DNA of 64,000 nt, from NCBI GenBank assembly GCA_012295275.1, contig CM022671.1, positions 13,888,001 through 13,952,000 of the forward strand. Direction: 5' to 3'. The notes under the pieces were generated by a model. The model saw nothing but the letters and a program-made list of their open reading frames with translations. It was not told the DNA's origin and did not search any database. Positions 1 to 53,393 of this stretch are shown here, in pieces. Position 1 is the stretch's first letter. Each line of letters opens with the position of its first letter. A program made the position numbers and the translations under genes. Source of the stretch: Chrysomallon squamiferum. Lineage: Eukaryota > Animalia > Mollusca.

Positions 1-341
1 TTAAAAGTATGCAATGGTATGAGTATCTTTATGGTGACAGACTCTCTCTTTGATTATAAACACTCTCTCCATAAACAAATGGTTAGTCCTTCCAGGCAGG
101 TTCTTATAATGCCTTGCCAATTGTACATAGTATCCCTACATCCTTTTGCTAAAATGGTCATAATAAAACAATACTTTGTTATGATGAATTTTTTAGGGGG
201 GATGCTTAGTGTCTCTGTGCTGGCTTATTTGATATGTGACAAAAGTAACTCATTTAAGTGTTGTAAGAAAAGTACTCACAGTGAATGTTTAAATTACAGG
301 AATCACAATAACAAAATAAATGCATTTTCCAGGTGAGTTAC

Positions 342-3300
342 CTTTTTCTTCTCTTCTGTGTTAATCTCTATCTCCAGCAAGTCAATGTCTGGTGGATCTT
401 TCATATAAGTCTGAAAAAGGTGTATATATATATATTTTTTTTTTAGATTTAAATTGCCATTCAGTTTACTGTATTGTTTAACATATACGATTTAAAAAAA
501 ATAAATTAAAAGAATACGATGGTGTACATAAAAAATTCCACTAATACTGTTAAAGCTAAATTAATTTCAGTTATATAAATGTTATTTTGAACAGTCTCAG
601 TATACAAATATTCTTCACAAATTAAATAAAGTATACAAAAAAATTGTCATTAATTTGAAAAGTATTGATGATTGGTTAAGCTCTTTAGCTGAAAAGCTTT
701 TAAACATTAATTTATTCAATCCAGAAACAACAAGAAATAAAAAATACATTTAAATCTTAATAACTGTAAAATTATGAATAGAATACAGAGCAATAAATGA
801 GGAAATATCTTACCCTAGCCTTGAGATTAGGATGAAAAATGATGTAACCATTCAGATTAATGGCAAAGGAATATCCATTTGGTCCAAGCTGAATACAGAA
901 AATATTCTATTATCTCAACCATGTAAATTCTTTGGTTATATTTCATATTTGAAGATTGAATATGATGCACTGTTTCATTTGTGATGTTTGTTTCCTTTTT
1001 GCTTTCGGTTTAAATTTTTCTGATGTAATAATTTTGTATTTATAAACATAAATTAATTTTTTATGCCATACAAGTTAACTTATATTTAAAATAATGTAAT
1101 ACAATTATGATCTATCACTTATGTTTACTATGTTTCACTTATATTTACTATGTATGACAAATTTAGTTTTATGTTACCTCTTGTTTTGGAGTTTTTTCTC
1201 TCATAGAATCAGTTGTTACATCAATTCCCATAACTCCAAGAATTGTCTGGTTGGACTGATAAAAAACACTCTTATTAAACATTTTAATAGTAACTGTTCA
1301 TATTGATAAACACATCAAAAAACAAAAGCAGAATTATTATTATATCTTTTTATCACTGCCTGATTACTGCCGATTTTAAAACATCTAAAATGAGAAAATA
1401 TTGTAAATGTCTATATAGTGGAGGTAAGTACTGATGTTATCAAATTTAAAGTAATTCTTCCTTCTGTTTTTTTTCCCCCTTTACTTCCTCATTATATTAT
1501 ATAAAACTACACTGAAAGTGTGTATCTGTCTGTATGTGTACATGGATGTGTAAATTTGCATGTGTCTGAGTGTGCATGCATGTCTCTTCAAAGACATCTA
1601 GATTATGTAGTTGTAAAGTTTAGCTATTAAAAACTCACTGAACCAATGGTTCGATTGTAAACTGGCAAAGTCACTGATGTCATCATTCCCAGTCCCTGAA
1701 ACATGTCACATTTAGTTTTATTTATTAGAAAAAACCCACAGTGAATCACCTGACTAAATAAATAAAAATGTTTTCAATCTTGTCAATTTTGTAACAAATT
1801 AATATAGTGGTATCCAAAACATATATAAAATTTAGAAATTTCTGAAGATATTTAAAAAATAAAGATAAAATATTTATAACAAATAAATGACTCAAATGAA
1901 TTATCATAAAATTATGCATCTGGTCTACAAATGTTGATGTATATTGAATATGTTGATGTATGTTGAATATTCTTTATCATATTTTTTAAAGAACAAACAG
2001 TTTTTAAAAATGATTTTAGTTAGTTAATTTCCAGAAGTAGAATATTATTTGAATTCTGTATTTATACATATAAAACAATATTTGAATGTAAAATAAAAAT
2101 CAGATAATATTAAAAATGAAAAAACAAAGATTTTAATTGAATAAAATTATTAATTAAGTAAAATCATGTGCATATTAATTATTATTGAACTATAAAGCGT
2201 AATAATAATATGTTAAGCATTAAATCGCATGCAAAATAATGATATGATAAAAACAAATAAAGTATAAACATATTATTCAAAAGCAAGCTGCATGCAAGAC
2301 AAATAATTTAAAAAGCATGCCAATAGTCAAACACAATGTATTAACACATTCCAGTCTATCTTCAACAGTATTTGAATAGTATTTTTTAAATTTATAGATT
2401 TTAGCTAATCTGATGTATCTTTTATCCTTACAACATATTTCAACATTTCAATAAGTAAATATTTTATAAATTCATAATTTTAAACATATTAGAAATTTTG
2501 AATTCAGTGTTATATTTAATTATATTTCTACTTTGTTATTTTCATACAGAATTATCATGTTTGATGTAACACAAGGTTTACCTGCAAGAGCATCCATTTT
2601 ATTTTCTCTTTACCTATGTAAAAGTATGTCTTTTTATTATTACATATAGCTGAATATCATGCAAAATAGTAGTTTTCTATTTTAGTCAGTTATTGGGTGT
2701 GTGTACTCATATATTTATATGTAGTACATATTTAGTTTACAACTATTTGTGTGAAATATACTACACAGTTTACTAACATCAAACACAGATAGGTGAATAG
2801 TGTGTGTGAAATAAAATTAGAACACTTTTGTTTATTTTTCTAAAATAACTACAATATATATTCAAAGTGTAATTCGTTTGTACCTTATTTCACCAATGAA
2901 ATAAATTTCAAATATCTAGATGTAGATATTATTTATGTAAAAAAGTATAATAGTTGATACTGCTAAGAAAAACAAGAATATTTTTTTAATCTTTAGCTAA
3001 TTTGAAAATAAAAACAAAACAAATTAATAATAATTTTAACAAGATTATAAGAATGTGAAAAATGTATCAAGTTTTTAAAGAGAAAATGTTCATGCTTAAA
3101 AAGAATAATAACAATAATAAAATACAGGAGAGATAGGAAAAGAAATAAACTCATTTTTTTTTAAATAATTTATTCTGATATATTACAATATTTCTATAGT
3201 AATACTTTTTATATTTTACTCATTTTATTTATTTTATTTGCTTAATATATTATTATTATTATTATTATTATTATTTTTAATGGAGATTTTAAATGGTGCT

Positions 3301-3572
3301 CAATGGACAGACAGACGATATGGACTATGACTTACAACACTATGAATGACACAACACTGAGTAAGAGGTCAAAGGTCAAAATACCAGATGATCATAATAC
3401 AAGTCACCCCAGTGGTAATGCTTCATGTCTAGCAGAACTTGAGGTCGACTTAGTACTGGTATGTAATCCTTCAAACAGAAGTTTCAAATAAACATACAGG
3501 AAATTTTATATAAAATTTATACAAGTTTCAACATAAGATGTTTGGCTGTTTGGGAAAACAATATATTTTTAA

Positions 3573-3608
<36 letters not shown>

Positions 3609-6600
3609 CAAAATAGAGAAATAAATGGAGTATTTTGATATACATAATATGTCTGTTAAAGGAAAACTTAGAGCCAAGTTACATAAATTTGAATTTTTAC
3701 TTGAACAAAGTCTAAGATTATGAGAATAATTACGAAGTATAACAATCTGATATATTTAGAAAAAAATGAAAATCAGTTTACAAAACAAAATGCATTTTAA
3801 GAAAAATGTGACCAAAAGCCATGAAAACAGTTTTCTTTTTCTTTTCAAATCTACACAATAAAGGTTCAAGTTTAAAAAGTAGTTGTCACAAGATGCTGGT
3901 AACTTATGTAACAAACACAAAAATGACAAAAACAAAATCAGGTCTCTCTACCTTATAACTAATCAACATTATCATCATCAATCATCATAGTCATTGTCAT
4001 AATCATTTTCCTGATAACCATATTCATCAACAACTGAAAAAATCTATTATTTCTTAATATATTATCTCCAAATATTTCTAAATCACTTCTCTAAAGCTGA
4101 TCAAATCTTTTCTTCCAATGTTTTTTTGTTGTTGTTGATATATAAACTAAATTGGATAATAATAATATTACAGACTGAAGTAATGGTAAAAACTCTTGTT
4201 GACAGTAAATTATATTGCATAATGTTTGTTTGTCAGTAAATACTAGAAAAGAAACCACTGTTAACTGAACTGAATTAACTTTATTAATTGAAAGAAAAAG
4301 ATTCTGTTAAGGAGATTAGTAGTTGATAATGATTAATTGCTGAACAGAATTTATAGTATAAAATTATAAAAAAAGATTTTAGTTCATGTTAAATATTTAT
4401 GTTTAGTAAATATTATTTTTCCATGCCCGAATAATAATGTAGTAACTGTATTTATCATGATGGCCAACTCTGATGAGAAATAAACATCATGTCATTTTAG
4501 CGGAAATGGCACATTTCCCATCTTATACAGAACTCTGTCAATATCAGAGGTCAGGTCCACTACAAGTGTACTTGAACAGTTTTATGACAAACGTCCAACT
4601 ACAGAGTGAGCAATGAAAAAAAAAAAGAAAAAAGGAAAATAATAATAATAATCCAGTAGGTAAATAAATAACTTAATAAGTAAATAAATACAAGTAAATA
4701 AGCATTCATTAAACATCTTGGACACTAACTTAAAAATGTTCTTTATTAATCTTCAGTAAAACCAAATAAATAAAAATCAGCAATGCATTGGATTATATGA
4801 TTAATAAAATTCTAGTCTTTAAATCAAATTTGGAAAAGTGGTAGAATTGCCTTGCGAATCATAACACACACTATTTCTTCACAACCACTTCTAAACTACA
4901 CAGTAGTATTGATACAACAGTACATTATTTGTAAATGAAAAAACTGTTGATAATTAAGGTCTGAATTTATAATCTATAATATTTCCTCAAATATTAAGAC
5001 AAAAAGTTGGCCATCATGAAATACATTTGAAACATTATGCTGTAAGATGCAGAAATAAGCAATAATTTTAAAAAATGAGGTTGAGAAAATGTTGTTTTGT
5101 TGGGTTTCTTCCATCTTTTTTACATGACATGCTTAAACTGGGATTCAGTTTCAACTCATTCTTACTCGGGGGTCAACAGTTACTGTCCAGTGTAGTTCAG
5201 TGCCATTAAAATATTCCTTAGGCCCATAAAATGCCTTAATGTATTCCTGTTAGAAAAAGTTAAAGCTGTCATATATAAATCCAAAACAAAATATTACGGT
5301 TATTGCAATAAGGACCAACAGATGCAAATGTATAAATGTAAAATAGTTGAAAGTGGCTTTTTTCTAATAAGATGATTTGATAAAGATATACTATTAATAA
5401 CATTTGCTTTATATCTGCATCTCTTTTCAATCAGAAGTCACTTACAATCTAATGATTTATGTGACATTTATTTCTATAAATCAGTATACTAAGAAAAAAG
5501 ATTTAAAAAAAGAAGAAAAAACAAATAAACAAATTGTAATGTTTTCTGTGTGGTTAAAAACTTTGATAAATTATTTACAAATGATATTTATGAAGGTACA
5601 CATGAAGTAAACAAAATGTACAGAAAATAAAAACCTAAAGCCTCCAACTGAAAAAAGAGAAAGAAGATTCTTTAAAATGTATACAAAGTTAAAAAATTAA
5701 TAATCATTTAATAAAGCTGATTCCAGCATCACCTGAATACAGATACTTATACCATGAAATGATAAAAACGAACTGAAGTTGTTAAATAAACACTGAATCC
5801 CACACCAGCTGTGTAACAATTACCGGTTTGTTTTCAGGGTTATTGTGTGGTGATATGCGACTACCAGACCACTGTGTGTGTTCAACATTTCTTATAGCAA
5901 GTGGTCGAGCCAACACATCATAGTATATCTAGTCAAAGAGTTCCAAATAACAGTAAGTACAAAATATCATATGTGCAAAGAATTAATATTTGCTTAATCT
6001 CATCATACTTTATTTTTAAAAGTGATCATATATGTATTTTATTACAACTTCCTATAATAAAAAAGTCAGACAAATATATATTTCTTTAGAGATGCACATA
6101 CAAATATATTTATATGATTATAATGGTTGGTAGGTAACTGGTAAAAGTATCTTTGTGTAAGAGAAAATAAAAAAATAAAATATCAAACAATTTACCTGAA
6201 CTTTTGCTCTAATAGCACCCATTGCAGGAATCTGTGAGAAAAACCCTGCAGCACAAAAACAAGTAATGAAATATACTTTTACTTCTGTTATTAACACATA
6301 TATAAAATACAGCCGACTTAATTTATACTCTGTTATGATCATTATGGAGATTAGTTGTTTTCAGTTAAAAGGTGCAGTGATGGTATTTCAAATATATTTC
6401 AAGAGTAATTTACTGATCAACAACTGATCTTACAGTGATGACTGCAGCCTTCTGTATGTCTCCCATCTCATTAACCCAATAATGTCATAAACACAAAATA
6501 CAATATCATTTTTACTTTTTTTTTTTTTTTAAATTTAATCAATAGTGATTTTTGATTACCTCTGTTTGCACATGCCATCCATCTGATAGCTGTTGTTGGA

Positions 6601-11700: not shown

Positions 11701-14700
11701 CTTGTACAAAAGGTGTATGATTGAAACAGGGACTCACAAACTTTGCTTCTTGGGCAAACTGTTAAAACATGATAAAATATAAGAAAAAGATATTACAAAC
11801 ATAATTACTTGATTATGATGAAGTAAAATGATTAACAAATAGGAGATTTGTTATTGTCAGTATATATATATATATACATATATATATATAACTGCATTTA
11901 AAATAATATTATATTTGAAAACAAATGTATATTAACACCATTCTGGTTTGCACAGTGTATTTGATCAAGTCAAAACGAAGTTGCTGGATGAATTATAGAG
12001 GTTGGATATAACCAACAGACTACTTTATTTAATGAATTAATTAATTTCACATGATTAACTGCACACCTATGACAACATATTTTTCTCTGACACCGAACTG
12101 TATAATTTGACATATTACACATGAATCATAACATAAAAGCCACGTGTGTGTCTCTCTGTGTAACACACTGTTATAGTCAAATTTGGATAACTTGAGAACC
12201 TCAGTCTATTGTGCCAAAAGTCTGTACCTGCTCAGTTCCTATGAAAATTAGTAATAATAACTTTTGTAGTTAAGTGACTCATATTTGTTTGATTACAAAC
12301 AAGTGTAGTGTATCAAACATACTACTTGCTTCTTAAATCCCAGTTAATGTTTACACATCTGTGAACATTCTCAAGAAATGTTAATGATTTTGTGTGCAGA
12401 CACTGTAATGAAAGACGATTTCTTTAAGAAACAGTGCAGTGTTTCAAAACTAACTTTTCAGGATAATGATATGTATGGCAGAAATAATAATATAACTAGA
12501 TGTATCACTTAACTAATTTAGTTATAGTATCTTCCTTGTATTACCATGTATGTGACTTTAAATCTAGTGATAGTAAAATTTCAGTACAGATTAATTACAT
12601 TCTGTCAATTATAGAAATCTGAAAATACATGAACTTCATATTTATTTCTTGCTTTCAGTTTATCCTTTTGGTAATGTACATGGATTGTTTGTGTGTGCTG
12701 TTTTATATCTCAATATATACATTTTCATATACATGTACATAATTTATTTGTGTGCATATTTATTTAGTTGTGTTTTTCATTTATTTTTGTTAATTACTTA
12801 GTTAACTAAATGTGAAAGAGTGTGTTTCTTGAAATATGAAACATACATTACTAATCTCTCAGAACTGGAGGAAATATTTAAAATTCAAATAATCAAACTC
12901 CCTGAAATTTAAGCTGTTTTTGTTCGACTTAGCAAAGTTGGAATGTAACAGATTTAACAGACTTGGTAACAGATTTAACAGACTTGGTAACAGATTAAAC
13001 AGACTTGGTAACAGATTTAAATGTCAGAATCAAGATGTGTAAAGAACAATAAATAACCGTATTGTAAATAACAAGTAACTTACTTCCACAATATTTACAA
13101 AATCATTTTCTCCTAACGTGTCAAGAATAGATTTCACTGTCACCTTCATCAGCTGTAGTGCCTGACCATGAGTGCTGCCACTCCTACAGACAAACGTAAA
13201 GTATCAACAAACAAACAAGCAAGCAAACAAATAATAACAAAACCTACATTATATATTGCTAGTTTTATGTGGGTCTATCTTTTCTTGTTTACTGCATATC
13301 ATAACAGGATATATTTTGAAAAAAACAGAAAATAATTTAGACTGGAAAAAGTTTCACATACTTAGAATTAATATTATCTGAATTAAATGTCAACATTTTA
13401 ACAGACAACAATTATATACCTGGAAATATATGAATAACCAAATAATATTAATAAACAGTTAAATTTATATCAGTATAATAACAATAATACCTACTTGTCA
13501 ATAACAATCATCATATCTTTTGGTGAACTTGACCCCTGAGTATACCTGAAATTTAAATAACAACAGATCAGAACAAAATTACTGAATTTATTTACATTGC
13601 TATTGTTTGTTTGTTTATTTCTGGGTTTCATTTTGTACTTTTTAATTTTATAATAATTATTATTATTTAATCACTGTTGAAAAATATTTTAAAAATTCTG
13701 ACCAGCCAGAATAGTGAAAGATTATATTAAAATGTTTTTCAAAATTTATTCTGAGGCAACAGAACAATACACCACCTTGTAAACTAGTATATATTTATAT
13801 TTATACTGTAAGAATACTTTGTTTTATTAATTGTCAGTGGCTTACCAAGATTGCCTTCTTACATCGTACATATCAACTTCACCGTGTATCTTCCATTTAC
13901 TGGCTGGAAGTATGAATAACATGTAATACATCAGTTATGTCACTAGCACATGTTAAAAAATGTCTGAAATCAATTACCACATTCTTTATTACATTCTCAC
14001 TATAAAGTATGTAACAGAAATAAAATCAACAAAACTGATTATATATAATATATGAAAAGCTGAAAAATATATGTACATACATACAGATGTAAACATACAC
14101 CAATGTGAATACATACACTCACATACGCACATACATTCATGCATGCATATATATGTATGTACATACATACATACATACATACATATATACATACATACAT
14201 ACATACATACAAAGATAAATATATACATTACAGACACATTTGAAATTTGTACATAATTATATATCTTCAATATCCATGAAAATTGTCTTCTGTGATTCAC
14301 TTGTGATGCAATAAAGTCCTCTGAGAGGTTAAACAAATTCATATTAATAAATTATTAAATTTACTTGGAGAAATTAAAAAATATATATTTACCTTAAGAC
14401 CTTAAGTAATATTTATCTAGATATATTATATTTCAATTACAATTAATTTATTTTCAGAAACTCAAACAAATAAAACTGTCTGTAAAATTAAATTTTCCTT
14501 ACACCGTACAGAGACAAATGCATTTACCTACTAAAAGTTAAGGTAGAAATTAATTTAAATTTACCTGGAAAGGTTCTCATAAATCCAGTCATACTGCCAA
14601 AGTATTGCCAGAGAATTTCTTCATCTTTGTCATAGTTTACTTTAAAAACAGGATCCAGCTTAGCTGTCCACTGCAAACCATTCAAGATGTCAATGTCTGA

Positions 14701-34119: not shown

Positions 34120-34727
34120 ATTTTATTATAAATATGTCGCCGTTCTGAACCACCTTTATATTTCTACCTACATATGGTATCTGATTTGTTATGTGTTACT
34201 GGTTTGTTTACCAACAATGATAAAAAAAAAATCAATAAAAAAAAAAGCCAAAAAAAAAGCAATAAATTATTAACTTTAAATATCTTAATAATAATAAATA
34301 AGCTTTCTTGTCTTGCAGGAATATCTGACAGTGACGTCATCTACCCTGTTCAAAGCAACCCGGCATCAGATATATTTTCGAGAGTTCGTCATTGTTGTGC
34401 CTAAACACTGGAAAACAAAGAAGTATTACAAACCGGCGGCTGATGCAGAAATCACGCATGCTCAGATTGTGGTGGACAAAGAAAACCCTGCTTACGGGGA
34501 TGCTCCTTACGTGAAGCAGTACGCTGAGTGTGGGCAACCCGGGTTATACATGCACCTCACTGTTCCCTACCTTATAGATGACAGAGTTACTTTTCGGTGG
34601 GGACTTCCAGGTGAGAAAAATGTAACTTGGCCATATCTGAGTCACCGTCGAATATAATTTATTGCATATACATGCCTTTAACTTGATATTTTATTTGACC
34701 TACTGTATGTAGAGCCGCGGGCACGCG

Positions 34728-34770
<43 letters not shown>

Positions 34771-34808
34771 CATACATACATACATATATACATACATCAT
34801 ATACCCAT

Positions 34809-34842
<34 letters not shown>

Positions 34843-37800
34843 TTTTATTCGTATATTTATTTTATAACATTCCAAATCAGACCAAGAATTATATGAAGCT
34901 AAAATGTGTGTTTGTGTGTGTGTGTACGTGTGTGTGTGTTCAGATTTATATCTGTTCCACAACACAAAAGTAATTTAGTCAAACGGTGATAGACTTATTC
35001 CTCGGCATTGATGAATGAGTGAATAGCCAAACCATCACGCCTGATATGTTGTCGTTGACGCCCACATCGTAGTCTTTTCGTTGTCCATGACTGAATGATT
35101 TGTCATCATTCTCAACTGTCAGAAGAAAGAAAAAAGTAAGAAACGTTTCATTGTTTGCCTGTACTTGACACACTTCGTCTTATAGCTCGTATATTTAGTT
35201 TATTCTAAAAACATATGTTACTTGAAGACTAGGAACAAGATAGTTTGAATGATACTTCGTGAAGAAGTAAAAACACAAATTAGACGACATACATACATGT
35301 AAGCATGCATATCTATATATATACATACTTACATATACACCCAAACCCACTTACTTACATATACACACGCATGAATATACATACAATCAGACCATGTCAT
35401 ATTTAAAAATAGACATCTCCACATCTAGTCAGGTGTAACATGTATCTGCAGTTTAATTGTTTTATTATAATTTTCACGATATAACATATAACCCATCGAA
35501 ACGTATTGCTTGAATTAATATTGCTGTTTCAAATAAATGATTTATTTATTGAGAAACTTTCTGTTCAACGAAGACAGCTGATGTATGCTATATTAACTCC
35601 AACATTTTCAACTGGTCGGAGTTTAAAACAATGAAGAATAAAATCTGATTTTAAAATACATGTAACTCTTTCCATCTAGAGCAGCATTGTTGCTTTATCA
35701 AAACTGTAACACATGCTGTCGCACCTACGGAAGTATACATATGAAGCATACGCTATTGCTACCTGATAACACTAACCCGTGTGTGATTCTTCTGTTATTG
35801 TAACAAGCATTATAACACATCATATCAAAAAACAACAATAACAAACACATATGTTCATATGTCTACTATTTTTTTCTGCCTTTCTTCAAGTTACAAACTA
35901 TATAACTAATCATCTAAAATAATGATTTTAATGCATAAATATCATTTATTAAGTTAGATAATTTCAGATTTACGCCATTTAATAGTTCTTATTTATTTAT
36001 TTATTTATTTATTAATCGTATTTTCATATTTTTCAGAGAAGACGTTGGTTCATGAGTGGGCACATCTCAGATGGGGACTGTTTGATGAATACCCTATAGA
36101 TGGACAGGACAGAGCCTTCTACAGACACAATGGAAAGTGGGAACCTGTCAGGTGATAGCTTTTGTTAATCTCTCTCTCTCTCTCTCTCTCTCTGAATATA
36201 TGTGTGTTTTATTGTATTTAGATGTCTTTAAGAGTGTCTGATAGACTATTCTAAAATATTTATGTATAACTGTGTCTCCTCTATGATGACAAACTAGACA
36301 AAGATGAAAAAAGAAAAGAAAATCAAAACAGTAACCACAAAAATCTAAAGCATGTTTTTAAAAAAGATCTGCAGTAGGTCTGCATGATGGATTGGTTGGT
36401 TCAGGTATTAAACGTGTATTGCTTCTTTCTTTGGATAATTATAATAATAATAATAATGAAAATTAAGCTGATCGAGGCTAGAGCTACGCTAAGGGGCTCG
36501 ACACTATCTTATTGCAGCCGGCTTCTTATTCGCCTAAAATATGATAAATGTACTGAGAAAATCTCAGGCTGAATATATAATGGACAAATGTTTCCTAGAA
36601 TGAAATACTCTGTGCAACATCTCTAAGAACAGTAAAGGAGAAATACTCTTTACTCTTGTGTAAGGTTTTCATGCTCACTTAAAACCGTCATATCACTTTT
36701 CATCAAAGTTATTGGATACAAACTGCAGAACGGCTATTGAAAGCCACATGATAGTAAATTGGTCCAGCACTATATCCCGTTTTATTTGCTAACATTTGAA
36801 TCTATCTTGATCACAAACAGCTGTAAAGAAGTATTATAATACGCATCGCTCACTTTATACAGTTCGGACAGGCGGATGTCACAGATGAAAAAAGCTTGTC
36901 AGTTACAAAAGGTTTTGTCACACAGTCTCGGTGTCACGTTGGTTATTTGTAAAACAATGCTAACATGTCTGGGGCAAACTGACAGAAATGATAAATGAAA
37001 CTTACATCAGTGTTGTAAATTTGCATACATATAGTTCAGATACCGTCAGATCGATAGTTGAATTAAACATTAAATTGAACTATAAACAGACGTAACTCCA
37101 TTGCCAACACATAACCTGGACAAAACCCACTAGAAAAATACCACTGGGACATAACCCTACATGGACATAATTCGACTTGAAAAAAAACCCACCGAACATA
37201 ACCCCATAGGAAAAAAAAAACCCCAAACAAACCAACAACAACAACAACCCCCCCAAAAAACAACAACAAATAAACAAAAACAAAACAATTCATCTAGACA
37301 TAATCTCAGTGGGGAAAAAAACAAACCCGCTCAAGCATAATCCCACATAGAAAAAACAGCACACGGACATAAACCCACTCACATATAATTAATTATAACA
37401 CAGTCTAATCTACTTTTTATTCACAGAGGAAGTACAGAGTGGAATATTAGTTTTTTTAAATTATTAATGAGTATTTGTATTTGTGGGAGATGATTTATGT
37501 CTAATTAGTTAAAAAGACCAGCTGGAGCATTCCCGTTGGATATGAGTATTGTATGTAGCTTTTTTTCTTGATAATCTCCACAGATGTTTCAGTAGCTGTG
37601 GTTTTGCGGGAATAGTATTATTGGATTCCATAAGGGTTCCATTTGATATAGAATTTGTCTTATGCCCAATCCAAATTGGCTTTAAGAACTTTCAATTTCA
37701 TGGTTTCTTTGATCTCTTGATTTCTGGGATGATATTTTCATAGCTTCCTTAATCTTTTGATTTCTGTGTTTAGATGACACCACTTATCCTCTGCTACTGT

Positions 37801-39740
37801 CAGGAGTGATCTGTTGGGCACTTAAAATTACAGGATAATCCCACACAATTAAAGTAGTCAACAGAACAAACACAAAAAAAAAAAAAAAAGAACAAAAATG
37901 TAGATTCATTAATTGATCAATCAATAGCATCAAAGGTAAAGATTTCGTAAACTATATTTGTAAAGTATTATTTTGTTCTCTGAAAAATATCTCAAGATTA
38001 GGCTTTTTATTAAGAATTGTTATTAGTGAATAGTGTTTGGTCCGATAGTGTTTTTCCGAATGATGTTTTCGTCTGCATTCAATGTAAACACGACATGTCA
38101 TGGGACAAACAGAACCTCAGAAATAACCTCTGACCCTATGTGACCCTGGAAGCGTGATGTGACGATTCGTATTGTGTTCCTATAGATACTGTACATGATA
38201 CATTGGCATGGTTTGTTTTGGCAGATTACAAATAGCGGAGTTACACAGCACAGTCCGAATGTCACAGAACTGACAGTGGTAGTGATATCTATTTATGGTA
38301 AAACGATTTATATTGGGTAGGATATTATATTTCACGACAATGTTCTTAAAATAACTGTTCGTCAGTAATTATGACAACAAAATATTGTATTTTTTTAAAT
38401 AGGCGTTCCCTTTTTTAATCCGTGACCAAAATGTTTCATAGTTGTTTATTAATATACCTATAAAACAATCTTTATCAGTTGCAGTCGTAAAAAATACGAA
38501 AATTCTGAAAGTCTGTTAATCCACAGATTTTTATAAAGGTACCCTAAAATTAGTTTGGAAATATTCAGTTAGGACAACATTTCATTGCTTACTGGGTTCT
38601 GATATACAGCACTGACAGCTTACCACTCATCTGAATTGTCATGATAAAAATAAATATAGTGGTAGTAGTAGTAACAACAACAACAAAAGGAAAATAAACA
38701 TATAAAATTCAACAAAACAACACAAAAGAAAAAAATCTTGAAGAATGCGGAACACAATTACATTGTTTTCTTCACACAATAATAAACAAAGTGACTTTAG
38801 ATAGAGTAAATTTGCTTTTTGGTCATATTCAAACGAAACTGTGTTTTGTAGGTGTACGGCAGAAGTGGAGGGAGTTCTCAGAAGCGAGAGGAAGAAAGAA
38901 GATTGTCCTTTCAATATGTACACCGGTGAACCAGGCAACGGTTGTAAATTCTATCCAAGGATGAAAGACAACCAGGCAGTGGCCTCTATTATGTTTATGC
39001 AATATCTCGAGAGCGTAAGTGCTTCACATTGATATATATCATGAAGAAAAACTTTAATACAATATATGTGTCGCCCATTGCTGTCATCTTAGTAATGCAA
39101 AGGAGAGAATATGATGTGATATGAAATATTCCGAGAGTAATAGTTGTCACTTACAGTTGGCGTTAAATGATAGTTATAAAGTGAATTAATATGATAGAAA
39201 TGTATAGGATATTTGATACGATATAATAAATAACTACAACAATAATCTAAATAAATATTGAAATAAAATTTTGTATTTTCAGATACTGTTCAGAATCCAC
39301 ATATTATTGCACAAAAGCTATGTTTTACTGTGTTGTATATAATCATGGATGTGTTTAAATAACAATCAACACCACTACCACCGCAATAACAACCACTACT
39401 AAAACTATGATCACTACTATGACTACCATATATAACTCTTTTGACCAGGCAGTCATCAGTGTCATAAATCTCATCGTTAAAGTCTGTTGTTCTTTATAGC
39501 AAATAAGTATCTGTACATTACATCATGCTGCAAATCTTCATTTACATGTAGATTGTAGAGTTCTGCGACGACCCCTATTCGTCAACAGCAACATACCGCC
39601 ACAACCACCTCGCACCTAACAGACAAAATAGACTGTGTTCTTACAGATCCGCATGGGAAGTGATGAGAAAACACCCGGACTTTCAACACAGTAAATTTTT
39701 ATTTTTTATTGGAACATTTGTCAGGATAATTTGAATAGTT

Positions 39741-39837
<97 letters not shown>

Positions 39838-42800
39838 GTATATATGCTGTTGCTGTAATTATGTTTCAAAAGTCGAAATACTAATTATATAAAAAATCTC
39901 AAATTTTTAAATATCTGCTACGTTGTCGTAACAAATACAATCGAAATGAAGATTGAAAAAAGAAAGATATTAGACATTAAAGGAACAAAAACAAATTTAA
40001 AAAGCAAAGCCCTACAGAATTCATTTTTGCACGAGAAATTTCAGTTATGAACAAAACGTGTCCATGAATTTGTGTTCAGATGTTTTTACAGTAGTCACAA
40101 GATTACCCATTTGTACGTGCTACAAAATTATTTGAAATATTTAACATGAAACGTCGTTTGAACTACTAAGCAAATTTTCATTTCGTCAGACGATCCACCA
40201 CTACCGCCTAATATAGACACCAATCCAGTGTTCCGGTTCGTGCAAGAACAACCACGAAGACGTGTTCTTGTTCTCGACAATTCTGGTAGTATGACTGTGA
40301 GTATCATATCATTCTGATGTCACAATTGCTAGCAGTTTCAGTAATTTAACAAAAAGTATTTATGATACTCTATACTGTTTTACGTACTATATTCTATATT
40401 TTTAATGATAACATAATACATACACAATTATTATTTATTTTATTTTTCATTATTTATTTATTTGTTTGCAGGGTAGTTCATTAAAAATACTGAAGCAGGC
40501 AGCTACAAACTATATTCAGAATACTGTTGAAATTGGTAGTTGGCTCGGAATAGTCGCCTTCAACACTGACGCCGTCGTCCTTGCCCCACTGACTAAGATC
40601 AAGACAAAGGCGGATAAGAAAGCACTGGCCGCCAAAATGCCTTTACTTGCTGAGGGCAAAACAAGTATTGGTGCGGGATTACAGAAAGGTCTGAATGTAA
40701 GTGGGAGGGGCTTCGATTTTCTCTTCAACACGTTTTATCGAATTTTGTATACACTGAGCCAGTTTGGTACACTGGATGAATCTATATTACGTAACCAACT
40801 GAGCTAATGTGGATAATCTATGAGCACAACATTTAATTAAGTCAACTTACTTAAACTAAGAACCACATTTTTTCTTCTAAATTTGTATAAATTATGTATA
40901 AATATTGGAACAATTTGTATAAATTATAAATCCTAACAGAAACACAATCATATGGGAATATTACAAGGACTATATAATATATTAATAATCTTTGTTCTAC
41001 TTCTACTTCTTCTTCTTCTTCTTCTTATTACTCTTATCATCATCATCATCATCATTATTATCGTGGTTGACATCGTGGCTGTTGTTATAATTGTTATCAG
41101 GTTCTGCTCAGTTCTAAAGGTGGAGGAGTAGGGGGGACTCTCATTCTGATCACTGACGGGAAGGAAAACAAGTCGCCGTGGATTAAGGATATTCGTAACG
41201 AGATCTTGAAACGAGGAATCTTGGTCCACGCAGTGGCGTACAGCCAAGAAGCCGAGGCGGCCATCTCACTGCTCGCAGCTGACACTCAAGGCAAAACTTA
41301 CTTCGCTAACGATCAGACAAACTCAACTTCACTCTCTGATGGTTTGGTTGCGACCATTTCTGATCACGCATCGGTGGATTCAATGGATACCCCGGTTTCA
41401 GTAAGTTTTTTTTGTTTTTTTTTGTTCGATGTGATTTATACATAAGTACATATCATGACATAAATATAACGTTATATATACGTGTTTGATATTGGGTTCA
41501 AATTATGCGACTGCAATAGATAATTCTATTATAGACAGTTTGAATTCTCGCAGTGTCAGTCGTAATCATAATATATTTGGCCTAACTCAATTTATTGCCT
41601 AATCCACTTGTGTACTCATACCCTCCAAAATTGACATTTTTAATTTAAAATTCTGCCTGATCCCTAGTTTTGCTGCATTTACTTTGTTAATCTGTTCCAT
41701 ATTTTATCTGAATTCATCAGGTTTCCAGTGACTCAGTCTTAGTAACATTCATGCGTCCTGCGACTGGTTCTTTTTACATCGATTCCACAATAGGTCGGGA
41801 AACCACTGTGGCCTTCACTTATACTGAGCCTATCTTCGTTACGTTGCATACCTCAGATTTCTCGTTGTCTAACAAAACTCATCCAGCCATATACAGCGAC
41901 GACAGACTATCATATATCTTGACCATAACAATACCAGAAATAGCCCAGGTAAGCCCAGTTTAATTTATACATTTAGGATTGTTTGTATGTTTTCTTAACC
42001 TCATTGATATGGTTACAGTTAATAATGTTACCTTAGATTTTGATCCGATAAGTAAGATTCTTTAATATCCTCTATCCAAGTGACATAACAAAAACAGTGC
42101 TATATTATCGGTACATACCACGCAGAATAATAAACAGAAGGTTATAAATGTGTTATAATGATTTTTAATGATTATAATTATATTGATGTATATGGAATTA
42201 AAAACGATGGCACTACGTCTAAGTAGACTGTCCAGTCTACAGTTAGCTCTGTTTTAAAATTAACACTTTCTTTAATTAACCAAAACATACTGCTATTTTG
42301 AAATTGAATAACTTATTCAATTATAGAAAGGTCAGTGGATTTATCGCATAACAACAAATGCCATGGACTCCAGCGTCACTGTGCACGTACAATCAAAACA
42401 GACCGACGCCGACACCAACGCCATCCTGTTCAACTCTTGGATTTCTAAAGATCTAATCAAGTACGAGGCCAAAGGAAAATTTGAAATCTTCGCCGAGGTG
42501 ACTAGAGGCCGAGCGCCTGTCCTAGACGCAGAGGTCATCTCTATGCTGGAAAGACCAGGATCGGTGCCAAAGAAAATATACATGAAAGATGACGGATCAG
42601 GTATAAGATCGTACTCAAGAAATCTTGTCATGAAATGTTACGTTTCTCATTTAACAAATACACAGAAACGTGTAAAAACCGATCCCTCAATAAATTGCAA
42701 TTTCCCCAATACGAACTATTTCCATTATCCAGTGATTTATCAGGAAAAGGATTTTATTTATTTATTTATTTTTTACATGGTCGCTTTTGAGAAGTTTCGT

Positions 42801-44757
42801 TTTACACGTTAAAGTAGGCTTATCCTATATTAGGATAAAAGCTATAGCTTGTACCTTGATAGTAGGAGCTGTTTGCTCAGAATAAAGCTTATAAATAAAC
42901 TTTATTTAACAAAATTATATTTAAGTTATGTTATTTTACGTTTTCTTATTTTAGGTTCTGATATTATCAAAGGAGACGGTATTTATTCCTCATATATAAT
43001 GGCGCCCGACCTAAGTCAAAATGGCCGCTATAATGTCAAGGTTATGGTTAAGGGAAAGCATGACGTCAGTAAGGTGGTCACAGGACAGAGATTCAGTGGA
43101 GCTTTAGAAACTGGAGAATCGGGTAAATAAACAGAATATTGTATTAACGGCGCACCAAGGATTTCATCATCATAATAACATTATATAGATGGCACAGAAA
43201 ATGAAATACATTAAACATAAAATATAGATCAACAAGGAATAAGCCAGAATGTTTTAAATCCACCTATGATATTATAAAATAGGTTGTTTTGTTAATAAAC
43301 GTTAAATTGACAGCTTTTGTCAGCTTGAAAACATAAATACAGTATTACAAAGGTAAGCATATGTATTATTAATGGTACCTCTTATTATCTTAAACATTAA
43401 ATTTATTTTCTTTTTCAGACTGTCAAAATTGTTTTAATTATAATTATTTTATTTTATTTATTTGAATAATAAAATTTTGTTATAATTCAGGAATACAGAA
43501 GATTTTTATTACTTCGTATTTGTTGTTAAATAAATAAATAATTTCCTCTTTTCAATACAGTTTTTATTGATCAACTCAGAAATCCCGAAACAGAAGCCAT
43601 TGAAGACTTCCAGCGAGTGACATCTGCAGGTGACTTCCGGGTATACGACTTTCCAGAAAGCACTGAAAACATAACAGACGAAATTCCGCCAGCCAGAATC
43701 AATGACCTTGAACTTGTATCACTAGACCAAGACACTGGCATTGTGATAATCGAGTGGACATCTGTTGGGGATGATATGGATCGGGGTAAAGGTCAGTAAC
43801 ACCCAACCCCCCAAAACCCCTCTCCAAATAAAAAAACAACAAAAAAAAGAAGCAAAAAAAAACAAAAAAAACAACAACAAAAAACCCCACAACAAAACAA
43901 CAAAAGCAAAAAAAACAAAACAATAACAACAAAAAAACACACGACAATAACGACATTGTAACAAGATACGGAAACTTTATCTCGGATTTCTATTATATCA
44001 TATCGTGTATTCTTCTTTTCCTTTGAAGTTCCATAATTATTGTTTTCGCCACTGCCACTACGTCTAGCACCATAAGTATTAAAACTACAAGTACTGACTC
44101 CACCGCTGCCACATCACCAACACTACCACTATCACCTGCTGATATTATTGTTGTTCTTCAATCGTTCATACATTTTTGATATTTTGTATTGTACATATAT
44201 GTATTTACTTTTCAGCTGATATGTATTACCTTCACTTGTCAGACAGTTTTCACGAACTACTTGAAAAACGAGATTCCAATGACAGCCTTACAAGTGTTAA
44301 ACTAGCGAACGGTTCATTTCTTCAACCAAAGCCATCTGGAGAGAGGGAACGCCTGGAATTCAACCTCACGTTTCTACTTCACGATAAAACCCTCTACCTG
44401 TCAGTGCGTACTGCCGACGCCACTGGAAATATTGCAGAACCATCTAACATCGTTACACTGTCGTACGTCGACGACGTTGCAGTTCCCGTGGAGAAGGCGA
44501 CTCATGCTAGCAGTATGTATCGCAGTTTTGTTCTACCTACTGTGATTTCTTTCGTTCTTCTACTCGTTCTCATCACGATACTGTGTTTGCTGATAGCTCA
44601 TCGAAGGAATGAGATGCAGTGGAAAGACAAACTGGTTCCAAAAGACGAGCATCCTAAGAACATCGCCGGGAACAAAAACATGAACTACAGAGTCGAAGGG
44701 CAGTACGTACTGCGATGGCACGAGGAACCAAATTCGTGGTACTCGACGCCATTATAG
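30399..44757 (+). CDS. CLCA: Calcium-activated chloride channel regulator (CLCA family): zinc metalloprotease/VWA protein, membrane-anchored, about 976 aa
   Basis: 13 phase-consistent exons: 30399-30545, 34319-34610, 36037-36151 ([14 protein letters not shown] zinc motif), 38852-39014 ([11 protein letters not shown]), 39552-39690 ([24 protein letters not shown]), 40190-40296 ([15 protein letters not shown]), 40472-40696 (TSIGAGL), 41101-41400 (ILITDGKEN), 41721-41948 (FYIDSTIG), 42327-42600, 42955-43122 (DGIYS; SGAL resembling the CLCA self-cleavage region), 43561-43791 ([20 protein letters not shown]), 44216-44757 (SNIV, TM helix, TAG). Total 2931 nt. Confidence 0.95.
31968..32020 (+). mobile_element. 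Possible tRNA-derived SINE head (degenerate)
   Basis: A-box-like TAGCTGAATGG followed by B-box-like GTTCAAATACC. No intact cloverleaf. Confidence 0.3.
37100..37400. repeat. Degenerate short-unit array (GGACATAA(A)CCC-like), probably a DNA-transposon/MITE subterminal repeat
   Basis: Recurring GGACAAAACCCAC, GGACATAACCC, GAACATAACCCC and GGACATAAACCCAC units in CLCA intron 3. Confidence 0.5.
39743..39833. repeat. (CT)n microsatellite, about 90 bp
   Basis: Visible directly. Many other (TAA)n, (CA)n, (GATA)n and (TACA)n tracts occur, for example near 8200, 14160, 22535, 24325, 30660, 34080 and 45980. Confidence 0.95.
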
Positions 44758-45582
44758 TCGTGGAACCATGGTAACGTTCGATATAACCTAATTAGATACC
44801 CTTTTAACTGGAAGATGACGGTGTTACATCACAAGGACGAAATGAAATCACCATAGGGATGAACAACTAACTATGTTGTCATATCTGTTAAGGGTAATCT
44901 CTGATTTTTGTTATATAATACGTTTTCATTTTAAATCTTTTAATAGGATTCAAGTGTTTTACGAGGTGCGTTTCTTGTTTTATTTAAGGTCTGTTTAGAA
45001 TTCATCTGGCGGTACCGCATAAAATAAAATTCTGTATATCCCAAGCTTTTCTTTTATTATTCTTGGCCATATATCATCGCTCAATATAAAGTATGGCAAT
45101 AAAATATTACTACTACAAATATCATTTTGTACCTTTCACCACTGAAAGTTGCTATTTTATTTTTCTGAAGAAACTAGAGTGCAAATAGTTCAGTCCATAT
45201 AGAAATGGTCGCATTCACATATTTTAAAACTGTACTTTCTATTGTTGTTATACTTAATTATTAATTAGACTGAACAATAAAACCATATAGAATATAATTC
45301 GGATGTTTATAGAACATATTTAGAATGTTTTCTTGTCTCTCGAAAGATACACTTTTAAAGAAAAATTATCACCTGACTGATGGTGACGAGATATTCACCT
45401 CATATAGAAATAGTAACAAGCAGTTTTTAGCTAATTCCTTCCAAAGAAGAATTTTAAAATATTTGTGACCTCTTAAAATTATTTTATATCTATATATTTT
45501 ATATAAAATAATAAATAGCTAATAAATGGAAATTTTGTTATTATATGTTGTAATTCGTTCGTTCTCAATGCTATAGATGTTG

Positions 45583-46857: not shown

Positions 46858-47354
46858 CTCTGTGTATGTGTGTGTGTGTGTGCGTGCGCGCGCGTGCATC
46901 ATTAATATTATTATCTCATGTAATGTCGATTTGCGCTATAATAGGTGTTTTCAGTTATTGTCTTCCAATTAATTTGTTTTATTAATTAGTTTACACTAAC
47001 TTTAAATGTATTCTTGTTCCATTCATAGAGGGACGAACAAGTGTAACTAGGATAGTATCATGCATTTGTTGGCTGTCGATTAATTGCATGTTTTAGACAG
47101 TTTGTTGTTCATATATTACAATACTGAAGTTTTATTTTATGATAACGGATCATATATAATACTTGTAAATGTAATAGTACAGGAGTACTTTTAGTGCAGA
47201 CAGCACCCATTAAACTGGCATGATTATTGCTACCAAAACAAACACAATTTAACTCTATTTTATTATTTATTTATTTATTTACTTTGTTGATGTTGTTGTT
47301 CTTGTAAACCGAGTAATTTTCAGCTCCATGGATTTGCTCATAAAAGGGGTGCCT

Positions 47355-47752
47355 ATGTATTACTTTCACTTGTCAAACAATTACCAGTGACAGCCTTTCA
47401 CATATTAAACTAGAGGACGGTTCATTTCTTCAACCAAAGCCATCTGCAGAGAGGGAACGCCTGGGTTCAACCTCACGTCTTCGCTTCACGATAAAACAAT
47501 CTACCTGTCCGAGCCAACTACCGAGAATAAAAATATGAACAACAGAATCAAAGGGCAGTATGTATTGCGATGGTTCGAGGAACCAAACACGTGACATCAG
47601 GCGCCATTACTTTCGATACAACATCTTTAGAGAACCTTTTAGTTGTGAGATGACAATGTACAAGATAAAATGACTAAAGAGTTGAATAATTATGACGTCA
47701 TATCTGATAAGGGCAATCTCTGGTTTTATTATATAATACATAATCATTTCAA
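47355..47752 (+). pseudogene. Decayed partial duplicate of the CLCA terminal exon and proximal 3'UTR
   Basis: Collinear similarity to 44221-44415 (e.g. CGGTTCATTTCTTCAACCAAAGCCATCTG, GAGAGGGAACGCCTGG, CTTCACGATAAAAC), then to about 44668-44930. It has a frameshift and internal deletions. Confidence 0.9.
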
Positions 47753-48399: not shown

Positions 48400-49375
48400 T
48401 AAGAAATTGAAATATGATTAGAGAAAGGGTCAACTAAACAGATTACTTCTGTCTTGGCATGGTTAGATGAACAAGCCATTGACATATATGATAGATTTTC
48501 TTTTGGACAAAATGAAGATGCAAAGAAAATTGTGCTAAGAAAGTTTGAGCAGTTTTGCATTGGCAAAGCCAATGAAAAATATGAAATATTTCTCTTCAAC
48601 AAAAGGAAGCAAGAAGAGGTTGAGACAATCCATGCATACGTAACTTCACTGTGAAAACTCATCGAAGCACATAATTGTAAAACATATGAGGACAATATGT
48701 TCAGAGACAGAACAGTACTTTGTGTGGGAGATGTCTCAGTTTGTCCGAAATTCTCGGAGGATAGAAAACTGACACTGTCATTGAGCATAAAATGAGGAGA
48801 TGGTTGGCATGCCAGGTGGGCAGAAAACTAGATCTCACCAAGATGTTAATGGGTGACTCACGATTTAGTAGAAAATGGATTTCTAGGTGCAATTTCCAAC
48901 ATGGCGGATAATTAATGTTTTCTTGGGAGAACCAAAGTTTGTTTAAAGAGGGGCAAAGGTGCAGACATAACTGTCATCCCAGAGATCAAAGCTACAGGAA
49001 GAAAATGCTGTAACATATGACATCTCTGCCACAAGACAGATACCCGCAGCCTCTGTAGATTAAAATTAAAAAAACCTGAATTGCCTGCAGACTAAGACTG
49101 ATTCATTCAGTGACCACACCAACAGACTGGTAGTGGTGCCTAAAGAAAAGAAACAGTCCACTTATTTATGCAACAGTGTCAAGCAAGAACACAATCCTCT
49201 TCCTTCCATGGACAATCTGCTGGCAGAGTTTGCAGGAGCAAGAGTATTTACTAAACTGGGCTGTGATAGTGGTTTCCACCAAATGACATTAGATGAAGAG
49301 CTGACAACAATTATTACTCCATTTGGGCAATTTTGTTACAAAAGGCAGCCTTTTTGGAATTTCTTCAGGTGCTGA
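48400..49375 (+). mobile_element. Degenerate Ty3/gypsy LTR retrotransposon internal fragment (gag, protease and RT pieces)
   Basis: Gag-like AIDIYDRF..KFEQFC..NEKYEIFLFNKRKQEEVETIHAYVTSL, protease-like GADITVIP near 48958, and RT-like HNPLPSMDNLLAEFAGARVFTKLGCDSGFHQMTL..TTIITPFGQFCYKRQPF. Stops, frameshifts and deletions are present. Confidence 0.85.
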
Positions 49376-50838
49376 GCTCCTTCTGTAATAGTTGTTGTCT
49401 AACAGCTGATATATCCATAGATGTACAAATTTCTACTAAAACTGTTTTGTATCTTTTCAGTTAGGTTCTTCCATTATGTTTAAGCAGTTTTAAAATGAAA
49501 AAGAAAAGAAAAGAGTATGAAAATAATAATAATAATATTAATATTAATAAAATATTAAAAAAAACTATTACAAATAATAAAAATAATAATAATAAATAAA
49601 AAGGAGACAAAAGAAAAAGAGAAGAAAACAAAACAAACAAAATTATTATTATTATTATTTTACAGTAATACCAAAATAAAAATGTGCTATGATAAATGTT
49701 TTTATTTGTTTCTCTATCAGTTTATTTTATTTTATTTTATTTATTTTTCTTTCTATTATTATTATTTCTTTCTTTCTTTCGTTTTCTTTCTGGTTTCTGT
49801 TGACATTTCGGCTGATGTTTCTACATTTAATACAGGCCTAATACTGTTTAAATTTAATAATTATATTTAATGACACAAAAGAGCTTGCTATTGAATATAT
49901 GGCGAGTGAGTGATTAAAGAGTGATAGACTACCAACAATAATTAATATACACATAAATACATATCCACACAGAAAAACAAAAACCAACAAGAAGAAAAGA
50001 AGAAATAAAAATAGGAAGAAATAATAATAATAAAAAACAAGAAGAAGAAATAATTAGCAAAAAGAACACACACAATTTTCTCAGGGTTATATCTTATAAT
50101 TGTCTTTTTCTCCATTTTTTTTTGGTGTGTGTGATGTGTAAAAATTGAATGAATTAAAATTATTTTTAAAACTATAGTCTTGCTTTTAGCTTAGTTAAAA
50201 ATTAATTGTTGTTTTTACTACTAACAATATTAAAATTTTGTAAAAATTAAAGGAAATAAAAACGATTTTTAAAATCAGTTTGTTTGTATAACTATTTTCT
50301 CTAACCAATTATTGTATGAATATTAAAAAAAAATTTGTTGTTTCTTTTTACTAATTTCTTAAAACAATAAAGGAAAAAAAGATTTGCAAAACCAAACAGT
50401 TTCATATGACTTTGAATACTAACATTTGTTATGTGTCCTTCTACTACTGAAATTGTTTTTCAAAAGATTATTAATTATTCCTTGCCATAATAATACTATT
50501 ATTGTCAAATGTCCCTATAATTAAATGTAGCAATAGTAATGTAAAATGGTTAACATGGAATAGATCATACTTGATCCTGTGTGACTGTTCACCTTAGGCA
50601 CTGAACATTAACTAAATTATGAAATACATTTAATATTCATTTTACCAAAATCTGATCATAAAAAGTATGAATGTAATGAAGTAGAAAAAAAAAAGAATGA
50701 TTTGTAAACCAGAACAATAATAAAGACTAAATATAAATGTTTTCATAATACAAGCTGTGGTTCAGATACGACTGGTGAAAGTGTTGATACAAACAGGGAT
50801 GATATTGATACAACTGGTGATATTTTTAAAACTAGTGA

Positions 50839-53345
50839 TTATGTTGATACAACTGATGATACTGATTCAACAGATGGTGCAGGTATAACTGGAGATACAA
50901 TTAGTGGTTTGGTTTCTTCACTTGGTAAAACAGCAGGTTTGAAATCATCAGTGTAATGATACTGTGAACTTAGGTCAAGGTTGACATAGGTGTTGACAAT
51001 GTCACATCGTTGTGGTCCAGTTTTCTGCTTCACATCCTTGATAACAATTTCCATTTCATTAGAAAGTTCTGAAAATGTTGGTCGGTCGGAACCTGAACCC
51101 CTCCAACACTGATGCATGACTGCATAGCTGTAAGTAACAGAAAATTAATGTACTAAAACAGAAAAACAACTAATTCATATTTGGCAAATTGATATATATG
51201 TAAAAACCGCAAGAACACAGGTCTCATTTAGTCCTGTGTTTTCACTGACTGTCTATTGTTTACCAGTATCTATCTGCTATTGTTGTTATTATTATATGAC
51301 TTAAAATAATAATGTTAGAAACCCCTTTGCTGTTTGCTTTATTATGGTAGAAGTGTAACTTCAAATTACTGAACACAACAGGGTGATGGTAAATATATTT
51401 ACTATTGAAAAGTTGTCAAGGATAATCAGGACAGTAACTGAAATGATTTAGAAGTATACTATACTGACAGCTTATTTAATATATCTAAGTATACTAATAC
51501 ATAATCAATATTATATTTATAGTTATTTCAATGTATCTGAGTATACTAATATACTATCCATATATTATTTATAGTTATTTTAATACATTTGTACCTTACA
51601 AGTGCACCAACTTAGAATTTTCCAAGTTGTGAGCAGTTGCCTGGTTGTTTTTTGCTTTGAGTTTGGAACCAAAATCTGAGTTACAAGCAAGCTAGCTGCT
51701 GTAATGAACAACACAATATCTGCCCAGCATTTTGCCAAATTTCTTTTTTCTAACCATAAATCCTAAGAAAGTGAGTGCAAAGCAGAGTGCTGATAAGAAG
51801 AAGTGGATGATGTGCATTGAATTAAAGCTTGAATTCATAGAAAAACATGAGCAAGGTGTGCGTGTTTTCAACTTGGCTAGGCAGTACAATATGTACCATA
51901 CTGAAGCAGAAGGAGTCAAAAAAGGCTACAACTCCAGCCATGGGTATTAAAATAATTTGTCTGATCTCCAAGATAAATACACTTTACAAAACCAATTTAT
52001 TTCTTTACATTCTCTTTTATTTTTGTTTTTATACAATATTTGTCTTTCACAAATACATTTTTCTTATTTAAAAACACATTATCCAAAATTGGGGCGATTT
52101 TTGCAGGGCTGGAACATATTAATGGTATTTCAATTAATTTCAGTTGGATAATTTGATTTGATACACAAGAAAATTGAGTTATGAGCTCATTCACAGAAAG
52201 AATTAAACTTGTTAGTCAAGGTACCACTGTGTATCTAAGTATACTCATACACCATCCATACTTTATTTATAATTAATTTATATATCAGAGAATATTCACA
52301 GAGAATCTGAACTACATTTGTGGCTAAATGAACCTATCACTGTATACTCACAGAGCATCTGGACAATACTGTGGCTGAGGCATTCTGCGGCCTGCTTTCA
52401 GATAGCGAATCATGTCCCAGTTGTCAACATCTGGATAGGGATTTACTCCACGAGTCATCAACTCCCACAAAACAACTCCAAACGACCACTAAAATAGTCA
52501 TAAGATTGACTTTTGCACTTTTCATATTTTATATTATACATTAATGCATGATGAATGAAATTTATAAATCTTTATTTGATGTTAATGAGTTCACTGTCCT
52601 TTTGGTGTTGTAACTAAATTATTGTTTAATTTGTTGTGTATTAACAAACACATATCTACAACATCTGGCTATGATGTGTATATATATATAATATAATATT
52701 TATCATATCAGACCTGTAACTAAAATATTGTTTTATTTGTAATACGTTAATAAACTTTTATTTTCCCCTATCTGGTTTTGATATATGGGTATAATAATAA
52801 ACACATTTCTACAAAATCTGATTTTGATGTGTATGTAAAATAATAAAAGTATATTTACTTTTCAGACCTAGAATCCATTTAATTATTTAATTATTTAATC
52901 TGTAATATATTAATACATTTTTATTTACCACATCAGACTTTGATGTGTATGTCCCTTTCTCTAAACTTTCAAGTGCCATCCATTTCACGGGAAGTTTGGT
53001 TTTCTTGTTGTCTGAGCTGTAATATTCCTTCTCATAAATGTCTCGAGCTAGTCCAAAATCAGCTACTTTCACACAGAAATCATCATCCAGCCTGTGGAAA
53101 AACAATAATACAGTTTGTAATATACCAGAATTCAGAAATAAATATAAACATAGTTATAAATATATACATTATATAGTGTTACAACAAAGAAATTAATATG
53201 TCAACACCTTATAATGTTGTGTATAAATAAAGAATTATTACTGTTCATAATACACACTAACACAATTTGATTTAAAATATTTTAAGAAATTAATACAAAT
53301 TATATAAAAGCCAAATTTCAAATCATCGTAAAAATAAAAATATTC

Positions 53346-53393
<48 letters not shown>

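Follow-up and report, generated by a model that had tools for sequence, protein, structure and literature searches.

The 64,000-nt stretch of Chrysomallon squamiferum DNA analysed here (the window) carries on its minus strand the 5' part of an alpha2delta (CACNA2D) gene, the exons of which tile the proteins of Gigantopelta aegis and abalone (P0005 and P0007). Membership in the alpha2delta family is assigned by a VWA_N, VWA, Cache and VGCC_alpha2 architecture together with likeness to solved alpha2delta-1, and both are found: VWA-type and alpha2delta Pfam domains occur in 13 of 14 matches to one window exon, and P0007 aligns to the solved alpha2delta-1 (8if3) with an E value of 2e-178. The best named match of one window exon is from G. 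aegis (85%). Other features of the window include: (i) a multi-exon gene on the plus strand (34296-44878), which by its motifs we take to be CLCA-like (calcium-activated chloride channel regulator), followed downstream by a partial, broken copy of its final exon (47292-47654, plus strand), (ii) a receptor tyrosine kinase with PSI/IPT-like repeats on the minus strand (50853-63999), presumably MET/RON-like by motifs, and (iii) plus-strand fragments at 48680-49427 and 51750-51955, which we take to resemble a retrotransposon reverse transcriptase and a pogo/Tigger-type DNA-binding region.

The alpha2delta gene includes a cluster of alternative exons between two constitutive ones (all minus strand). 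Exon 14 (6196..6245) encodes the end of the VWA region and ends in phase 0, while exon 16 (1639..1695; RNA contigs and alignment) has Ser at the position of human Thr461. Between them lie, in tandem, three open phase 0-0 exons with AG/GT ends: 15a (5824..5928; 105 nt, 35 aa), 15b (5166..5246; 81 nt, 27 aa) and 15c (3385..3468; 84 nt, 28 aa). These coordinates, lengths and peptides agree with those of the first-pass annotation, which was made from the DNA letters alone, and all five exons are in place. At 41-42%, the GC content of the three exceeds that of almost every other candidate nearby; open AG..GT phase-0 stretches readily occur by chance, and 1696-6195 contains 81 of them. Only these three loci stand out (36.6, 27.3 and 21.5 bits; the best unrelated of 99 candidates scores 3.2) against a profile that combines 56 homologous exon peptides from other animals, and a candidate fourth exon of the cluster was rejected by a frame scan ignoring splice sites, which gave no further copy in the window.

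The similarity between copies is clear for a and c (shuffle p = 0.0005), weak for b and c (0.014) and not significant for a and b (0.086); thus, the shared residue skeleton is by itself no proof of 15b. On profiles from other gastropods, each window exon scores highest on its own type (a 43.1, b 23.0 and c 66.2 bits), with 15a reaching 13.1 bits on type c. The 15c peptide, the nearest of the three to the human exon, is identical to that of Gigantopelta aegis at 25 of 28 residues and 15a to that of abalone at 17 of 35. The assignment of 15a draws on the profile scores, that of 15b on RNA joints and profile, and that of 15c on the Gigantopelta identity and on aligning the abalone c isoform with 8if3; a PDB sequence search with 15c alone as query returned no match. 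It is close to certain that 15a, 15b and 15c are real alternative exons. The 15c acceptor ends TGTTTGAAG. The final nine letters of the c-type acceptor, with A before the AG, are identical in the window (3469-3477, minus strand) and at a mussel-like locus, L006 (677-685). Judged by its letters, this acceptor is possibly a conserved weak, regulated site. A TGACCT direct repeat directly follows the 15c donor (3367-3379, minus strand), within a GC-richer 100-nt stretch.

RNA contigs from four runs of one study, placed on positions 300-5400 of the window, a stretch that takes in 15b, 15c and exon 16, carry splice joints of the cluster. Among the joints listed, 5166->1695, which takes 15b to exon 16 past 15c, is found in three of the four runs (X1, X2 and X3), and the joint of exon 14 to 15b (6196->5246) in one (X3), where the 26 loose letters of the contig beyond 15b are those of exon 14, past 15a. 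Both junctions had been expected in the first-pass annotation, and the case that would have spoken against it, that 15c alone is ever spliced in, does not hold, as 15b, the most divergent of the three exons, is the form seen in RNA. Neither a spliced joint of 15c nor a b-c joint is among the joints listed for the four runs, and one X2 contig across 15c passes unspliced through the 15c donor. Contigs drop rare forms and show presence, not absence, and the missing 15c joints are not read as absence of 15c. In this animal, 15b is seen joined to both flanks; a and c joined singly are known from isoforms of relatives. A one-letter insertion in exon 17 (window position 1191), seen in one X2 contig of depth 5, is probably an error.

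Protein searches and cluster look-ups place types a, b and c, among the matches listed, in separate RefSeq isoforms of gastropods, bivalves and octopus (two Haliotis species, Physella, Biomphalaria, Pomacea, Littorina, Argopecten, Mizuhopecten, Magallana, Ruditapes, Dreissena and Octopus); the large protein clusters contributed a part of their matches (e.g., 15 of 36 and 15 of 69). A fourth type, d, of 25 aa is present in oyster, mussel and scallop (P0048, P0111, P0116 and kin). At locus L006, a b-type exon is followed in tandem by a c-type exon, with AG/GT ends and in the order of the window, and in the animal contig L014 a single c-like exon comes after exon 14, with the end of the contig close behind. 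Of 19 loci from a metagenome pattern scan, two were alpha2delta exons and the others chance matches. Among gastropods, c exons have a mean identity of 0.71, a exons of 0.48 and b exons of 0.34. We assigned the type labels by hand, those of b across classes resting on end motif, length and order, and the gastropod profiles applied to non-gastropod exons confirm c in 4 of 4 and a in 5 of 6 and b in only 2 of 11.

Outside the molluscs, annelid gene models have 55-100 aa at this place that resemble tandem units, and two exon types, along with microexons, occur in the nemertean Lineus (P0056, P0159, P0062 and P0047 for annelids and Lineus together). The tandem units of Capitella and Paralvinella score 1-5 bits, a lead rather than a result; a second unit in Ridgeia goes undetected by the profile, and the profile scores of Owenia and P0061 are circular. 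Among the records seen, spider, hemichordate and brachiopod have one exon here, which is a/c-like. The cluster is old and may already have been present in the common ancestor of molluscs, nemerteans and annelids. RNA joints, a-c similarity and isoforms across molluscs together bear out the proposal that the exons are real, tandem, alternatively used and old.

Clusters of mutually exclusive exons that arise by tandem duplication consist of adjacent, in-phase, homologous exons, each joined alone to both flanks, with no co-inclusion or total skipping. Like length, equal phase, canonical ends and homology between copies are all found here. Among 89 RefSeq isoforms, drawn from mollusc species with several listed RefSeq isoforms (leaving aside single-isoform records, non-RefSeq predictions and partial proteins), 68 have one exon, 14 have two and seven have none. 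The mutual exclusivity proposed in the first-pass annotation, taken strictly, is supported in part, with no b-c joint among those listed for the four runs. The accompanying structural argument, that two copies would duplicate a core Cache strand, is weakened by the one shared and much longer segment present at this place in 37 of 38 lepidopteran (moth and butterfly) alpha2delta proteins. Use of one exon at a time, mostly but not strictly, is quite probable, and exclusivity is probably leaky.

Introns of 267, 577, 1697 and 1689 nt separate exons 14, 15a, 15b, 15c and 16, with ordinary GTA donors. A search for steric clash, frame shift and mixed spliceosomes as enforcers found no very short intron, exon lengths divisible by three and no U12 ends. 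Introns as long as 577 and 1697 nt, together with exon lengths that keep the frame, exclude enforcement by steric clash or frame shift and, since neither intron length nor frame can enforce the choice, regulated splice sites are likely. Dscam1 clusters make their mutually exclusive choice by competing RNA pairing. The snail cluster resembles the Dscam1 type in its tandem duplicated, in-phase exons and long introns but differs in having only three copies, which are strongly diverged, and in its apparent leakiness. An inverted repeat in the 15b-15c intron (4434..5038, minus strand; arms 5005-5038 and 4434-4469, about 530 nt apart) forms a candidate stem of -32.6 kcal/mol, compared to -26.8 kcal/mol for the best null (z = -3.7). 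It lies wholly inside the intron and has no further copy in the window; a stronger inverted repeat occurs in one of six control regions, and no counterpart was seen in L006. The repeat may be an RNA stem or a transposon remnant. A GC-richer element after the 15a donor (5786..5815, minus strand) has two potential pairing partners, 5126-5155 downstream of the 15b donor and exon 15b, neither of which exceeds the shuffle null; docking/selector pairings after 15a and 15b, at -24 kcal/mol, lie within the range of 12 shuffles (best -21 to -27). The choice of exon would be made by regulated splice sites, possibly aided by RNA pairing.

Two readings deny that the three exons form a set from which one is chosen. 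The exons could be independent in-frame cassettes, with single, double and skipped forms all made and useful, and any additional copy accommodated as a loop of the hairpin that follows the strand. The 21 of 89 RefSeq isoforms that are other than single (a+c, a+b, b+c, a+d and skip-all) favor this reading, the two inner introns and the lengths divisible by three permit co-inclusion, and the lepidopteran proteins and Lineus microexons show that inserts are tolerated here. RefSeq models, however, say nothing about abundance, and Gnomon is able to string together junctions that are rare. The X1-X3 contigs pass from 15b directly to exon 16, all seven full-length Logan-derived proteins (one cephalopod-like cluster) have a single exon, the three Aplysia sequences each have one, and skipping of all three exons would remove four pocket residues; independent cassettes are, on balance, improbable. 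Alternatively, 15b could be the sole exon used in this animal and 15a and 15c unused relics. While the four runs of one study list 15b joints only, contigs speak to presence and not to absence, and 15c and 15a are open, with intact ends and the identities to Gigantopelta and abalone given above, which leaves this reading with next to no credence.

The segment encoded by the cluster, placed by aligning the abalone c isoform to human alpha2delta-1 (8if3), spans residues 425-454 (counted from the alignment). Thirteen residues line the gabapentin/leucine pocket of alpha2delta-1 in a cryo-EM study, in which Tyr450 belongs to the amino-acid motif (bioRxiv 2022.12.05.519047; rabbit numbers, from which 2 is subtracted for human). 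Four of the 13 (human Tyr450, Asp452, Ala453 and Leu454) fall within the last five codons of the exon, a feature that the first-pass annotation missed. Mutations in the pocket are established to alter trafficking or its block by drug, and loss of Arg241 abolishes gabapentinoid binding; Trp and Phe alone leave the surface expression of alpha2delta-1 unchanged (PMC9901441).

The pocket residues differ by exon type. Type c retains Tyr450 and Asp452 in 13 of 13 distinct exons, 15c retains both as well, and so does type d in 3 of 3. Type b, with the register assumed by anchoring on the exon end, has Tyr in none of 21 (Thr in 10 of 10 gastropods, as in 15b) and Asp in 19 of 21. Among gastropod type a exons, 8 of 10 have His at the Tyr450 position and none has Tyr, and the Asp452 equivalent is lost as well; 15a is without both, while non-gastropod type a retains Tyr450 in 6 of 6. 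An upstream exon (13846..13903, ends approximate, minus strand; alignment and tiling) carries the first half of the dCache_1 motif, which is incomplete in the window, as Tyr236 and Trp243 are kept and Arg241 is Gln. The second half (Tyr450 and Asp491) is complete for 15c only; Tyr is absent from 15a and 15b, and the Asp491 equivalent is constitutive, in exon 17 (1178..1255, minus strand; RNA contigs and tiling). Gln occupies the Arg241 position in 18 of 19 gastropod entries, including the window, compared to Arg in 20 of 20 other entries compared. One annelid paralogue has Gln there too. The canonical amino-acid site may thus already be lost in snails, and gastropod alpha2delta is predicted, from these residues, to be gabapentin-insensitive. 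AlphaFold models of abalone isoforms b and a+c have pLDDT <50 at 414-460 and 396-523, respectively, and are uninformative on the exon region.

As the exon holds pocket residues that differ by type, splicing likely retunes the pocket. In the mechanism proposed, each exon would provide the part of the chain that exits the VWA domain and contributes to the lining of the dCache1 ligand pocket, and exon choice would change pocket chemistry. Type c would be the ancestral, motif-complete form, type b and gastropod type a would form pockets with changed or lost affinity, and cells could set alpha2delta folding or trafficking, and hence CaV1/CaV2 surface levels, via exon choice. We favor, at a probability of about 0.6, the reading of an old three-exon cluster, used mostly one exon at a time, in which the choice changes a predicted pocket segment. 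The odds that exon function acts through the pocket fall slightly short of even. More tentative is the wider proposal that splicing serves lophotrochozoans as a switch of the alpha2delta amino-acid pocket, with c a motif-complete sensor, b and a retuned or ligand-blind, and the cluster possibly ancestral to molluscs, nemerteans and annelids.

The isoforms may instead act via the VWA-exit helix and exposed surface, with consequences for the VWA-Cache angle, alpha1 coupling or trans-synaptic partners, in which case the pocket changes would be a by-product. About two-thirds of each exon precedes the pocket residues, and it is this part that differs most in b; gastropods that are without Arg241 still retain all three exons, and in vertebrates it is in loops of the cache domains that splice regions A-C exert their effect, with one alpha2delta-2 variant altering synapse formation (PMC9901441). 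The pocket positions, however, are the most fixed within each type, even in b, where the first half drifts, and an action through the surface is accordingly rated unlikely, though it is the most serious competitor to a pocket role.

The first-pass annotation knew of no description of the cluster, yet one is in print: Dunn et al. 2018 (PMC5818475) list, in Aplysia, oyster and octopus, a set of three mutually exclusive exons located between the VWA and Cache domains of alpha2delta, with no function given in the accessible text, and the snail cluster is its orthologue. Their splice site 7 shares the VWA-Cache position, Aplysia a- and c-type sequences and the b-type ends of oyster and octopus, but the third Aplysia sequence is c-like rather than b-like; in the supplement the c sequence is cloned, and two sequences are from transcriptomes and carry no PCR note. 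The accessible parts of that paper give no genomic layout, exclusivity test, function or link to the pocket. Regions A, B and C of vertebrate alpha2delta-1 likewise vary the cache domains by tissue, and gabapentin binds with lower affinity when region C is missing (PMC9901441), but these regions lie further downstream and consist of cassettes or an alternative acceptor, not of duplicated exons that replace pocket-lining residues. Differences in pocket residues also explain the ligand selectivity of the alpha2delta-1/-2 compared to the alpha2delta-3/-4 paralogues; vertebrates, however, vary the pocket by gene duplication, whereas the snail would do so by exon choice in one gene. A literature search (including PMC8915833, PMC12634952 and bioRxiv 2026.09.15.751774), which covered mostly titles and few subscription journals and is weak evidence of absence, found no link between the cluster and the pocket. 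What appears to be new is the proof of 15b from RNA, a broader taxonomic range, the probable leakiness and the putative pocket switch.

The cluster bears on the effect of natural amino-acid binding at the gabapentin site. Alternative pocket walls kept across molluscs would show that the state of the pocket is under selection and would provide natural variants to test. The finding is relevant to the neurobiology of Aplysia, Lymnaea and cephalopods, for which usually one isoform is cloned, and to annotation, as the isoform labelled X1 in RefSeq is often a double-exon model. If the pocket switch is true, the isoform sets of oyster, scallop and octopus, in which Arg241 is kept, would be a ready test of the effect of the endogenous ligand on calcium-channel trafficking.
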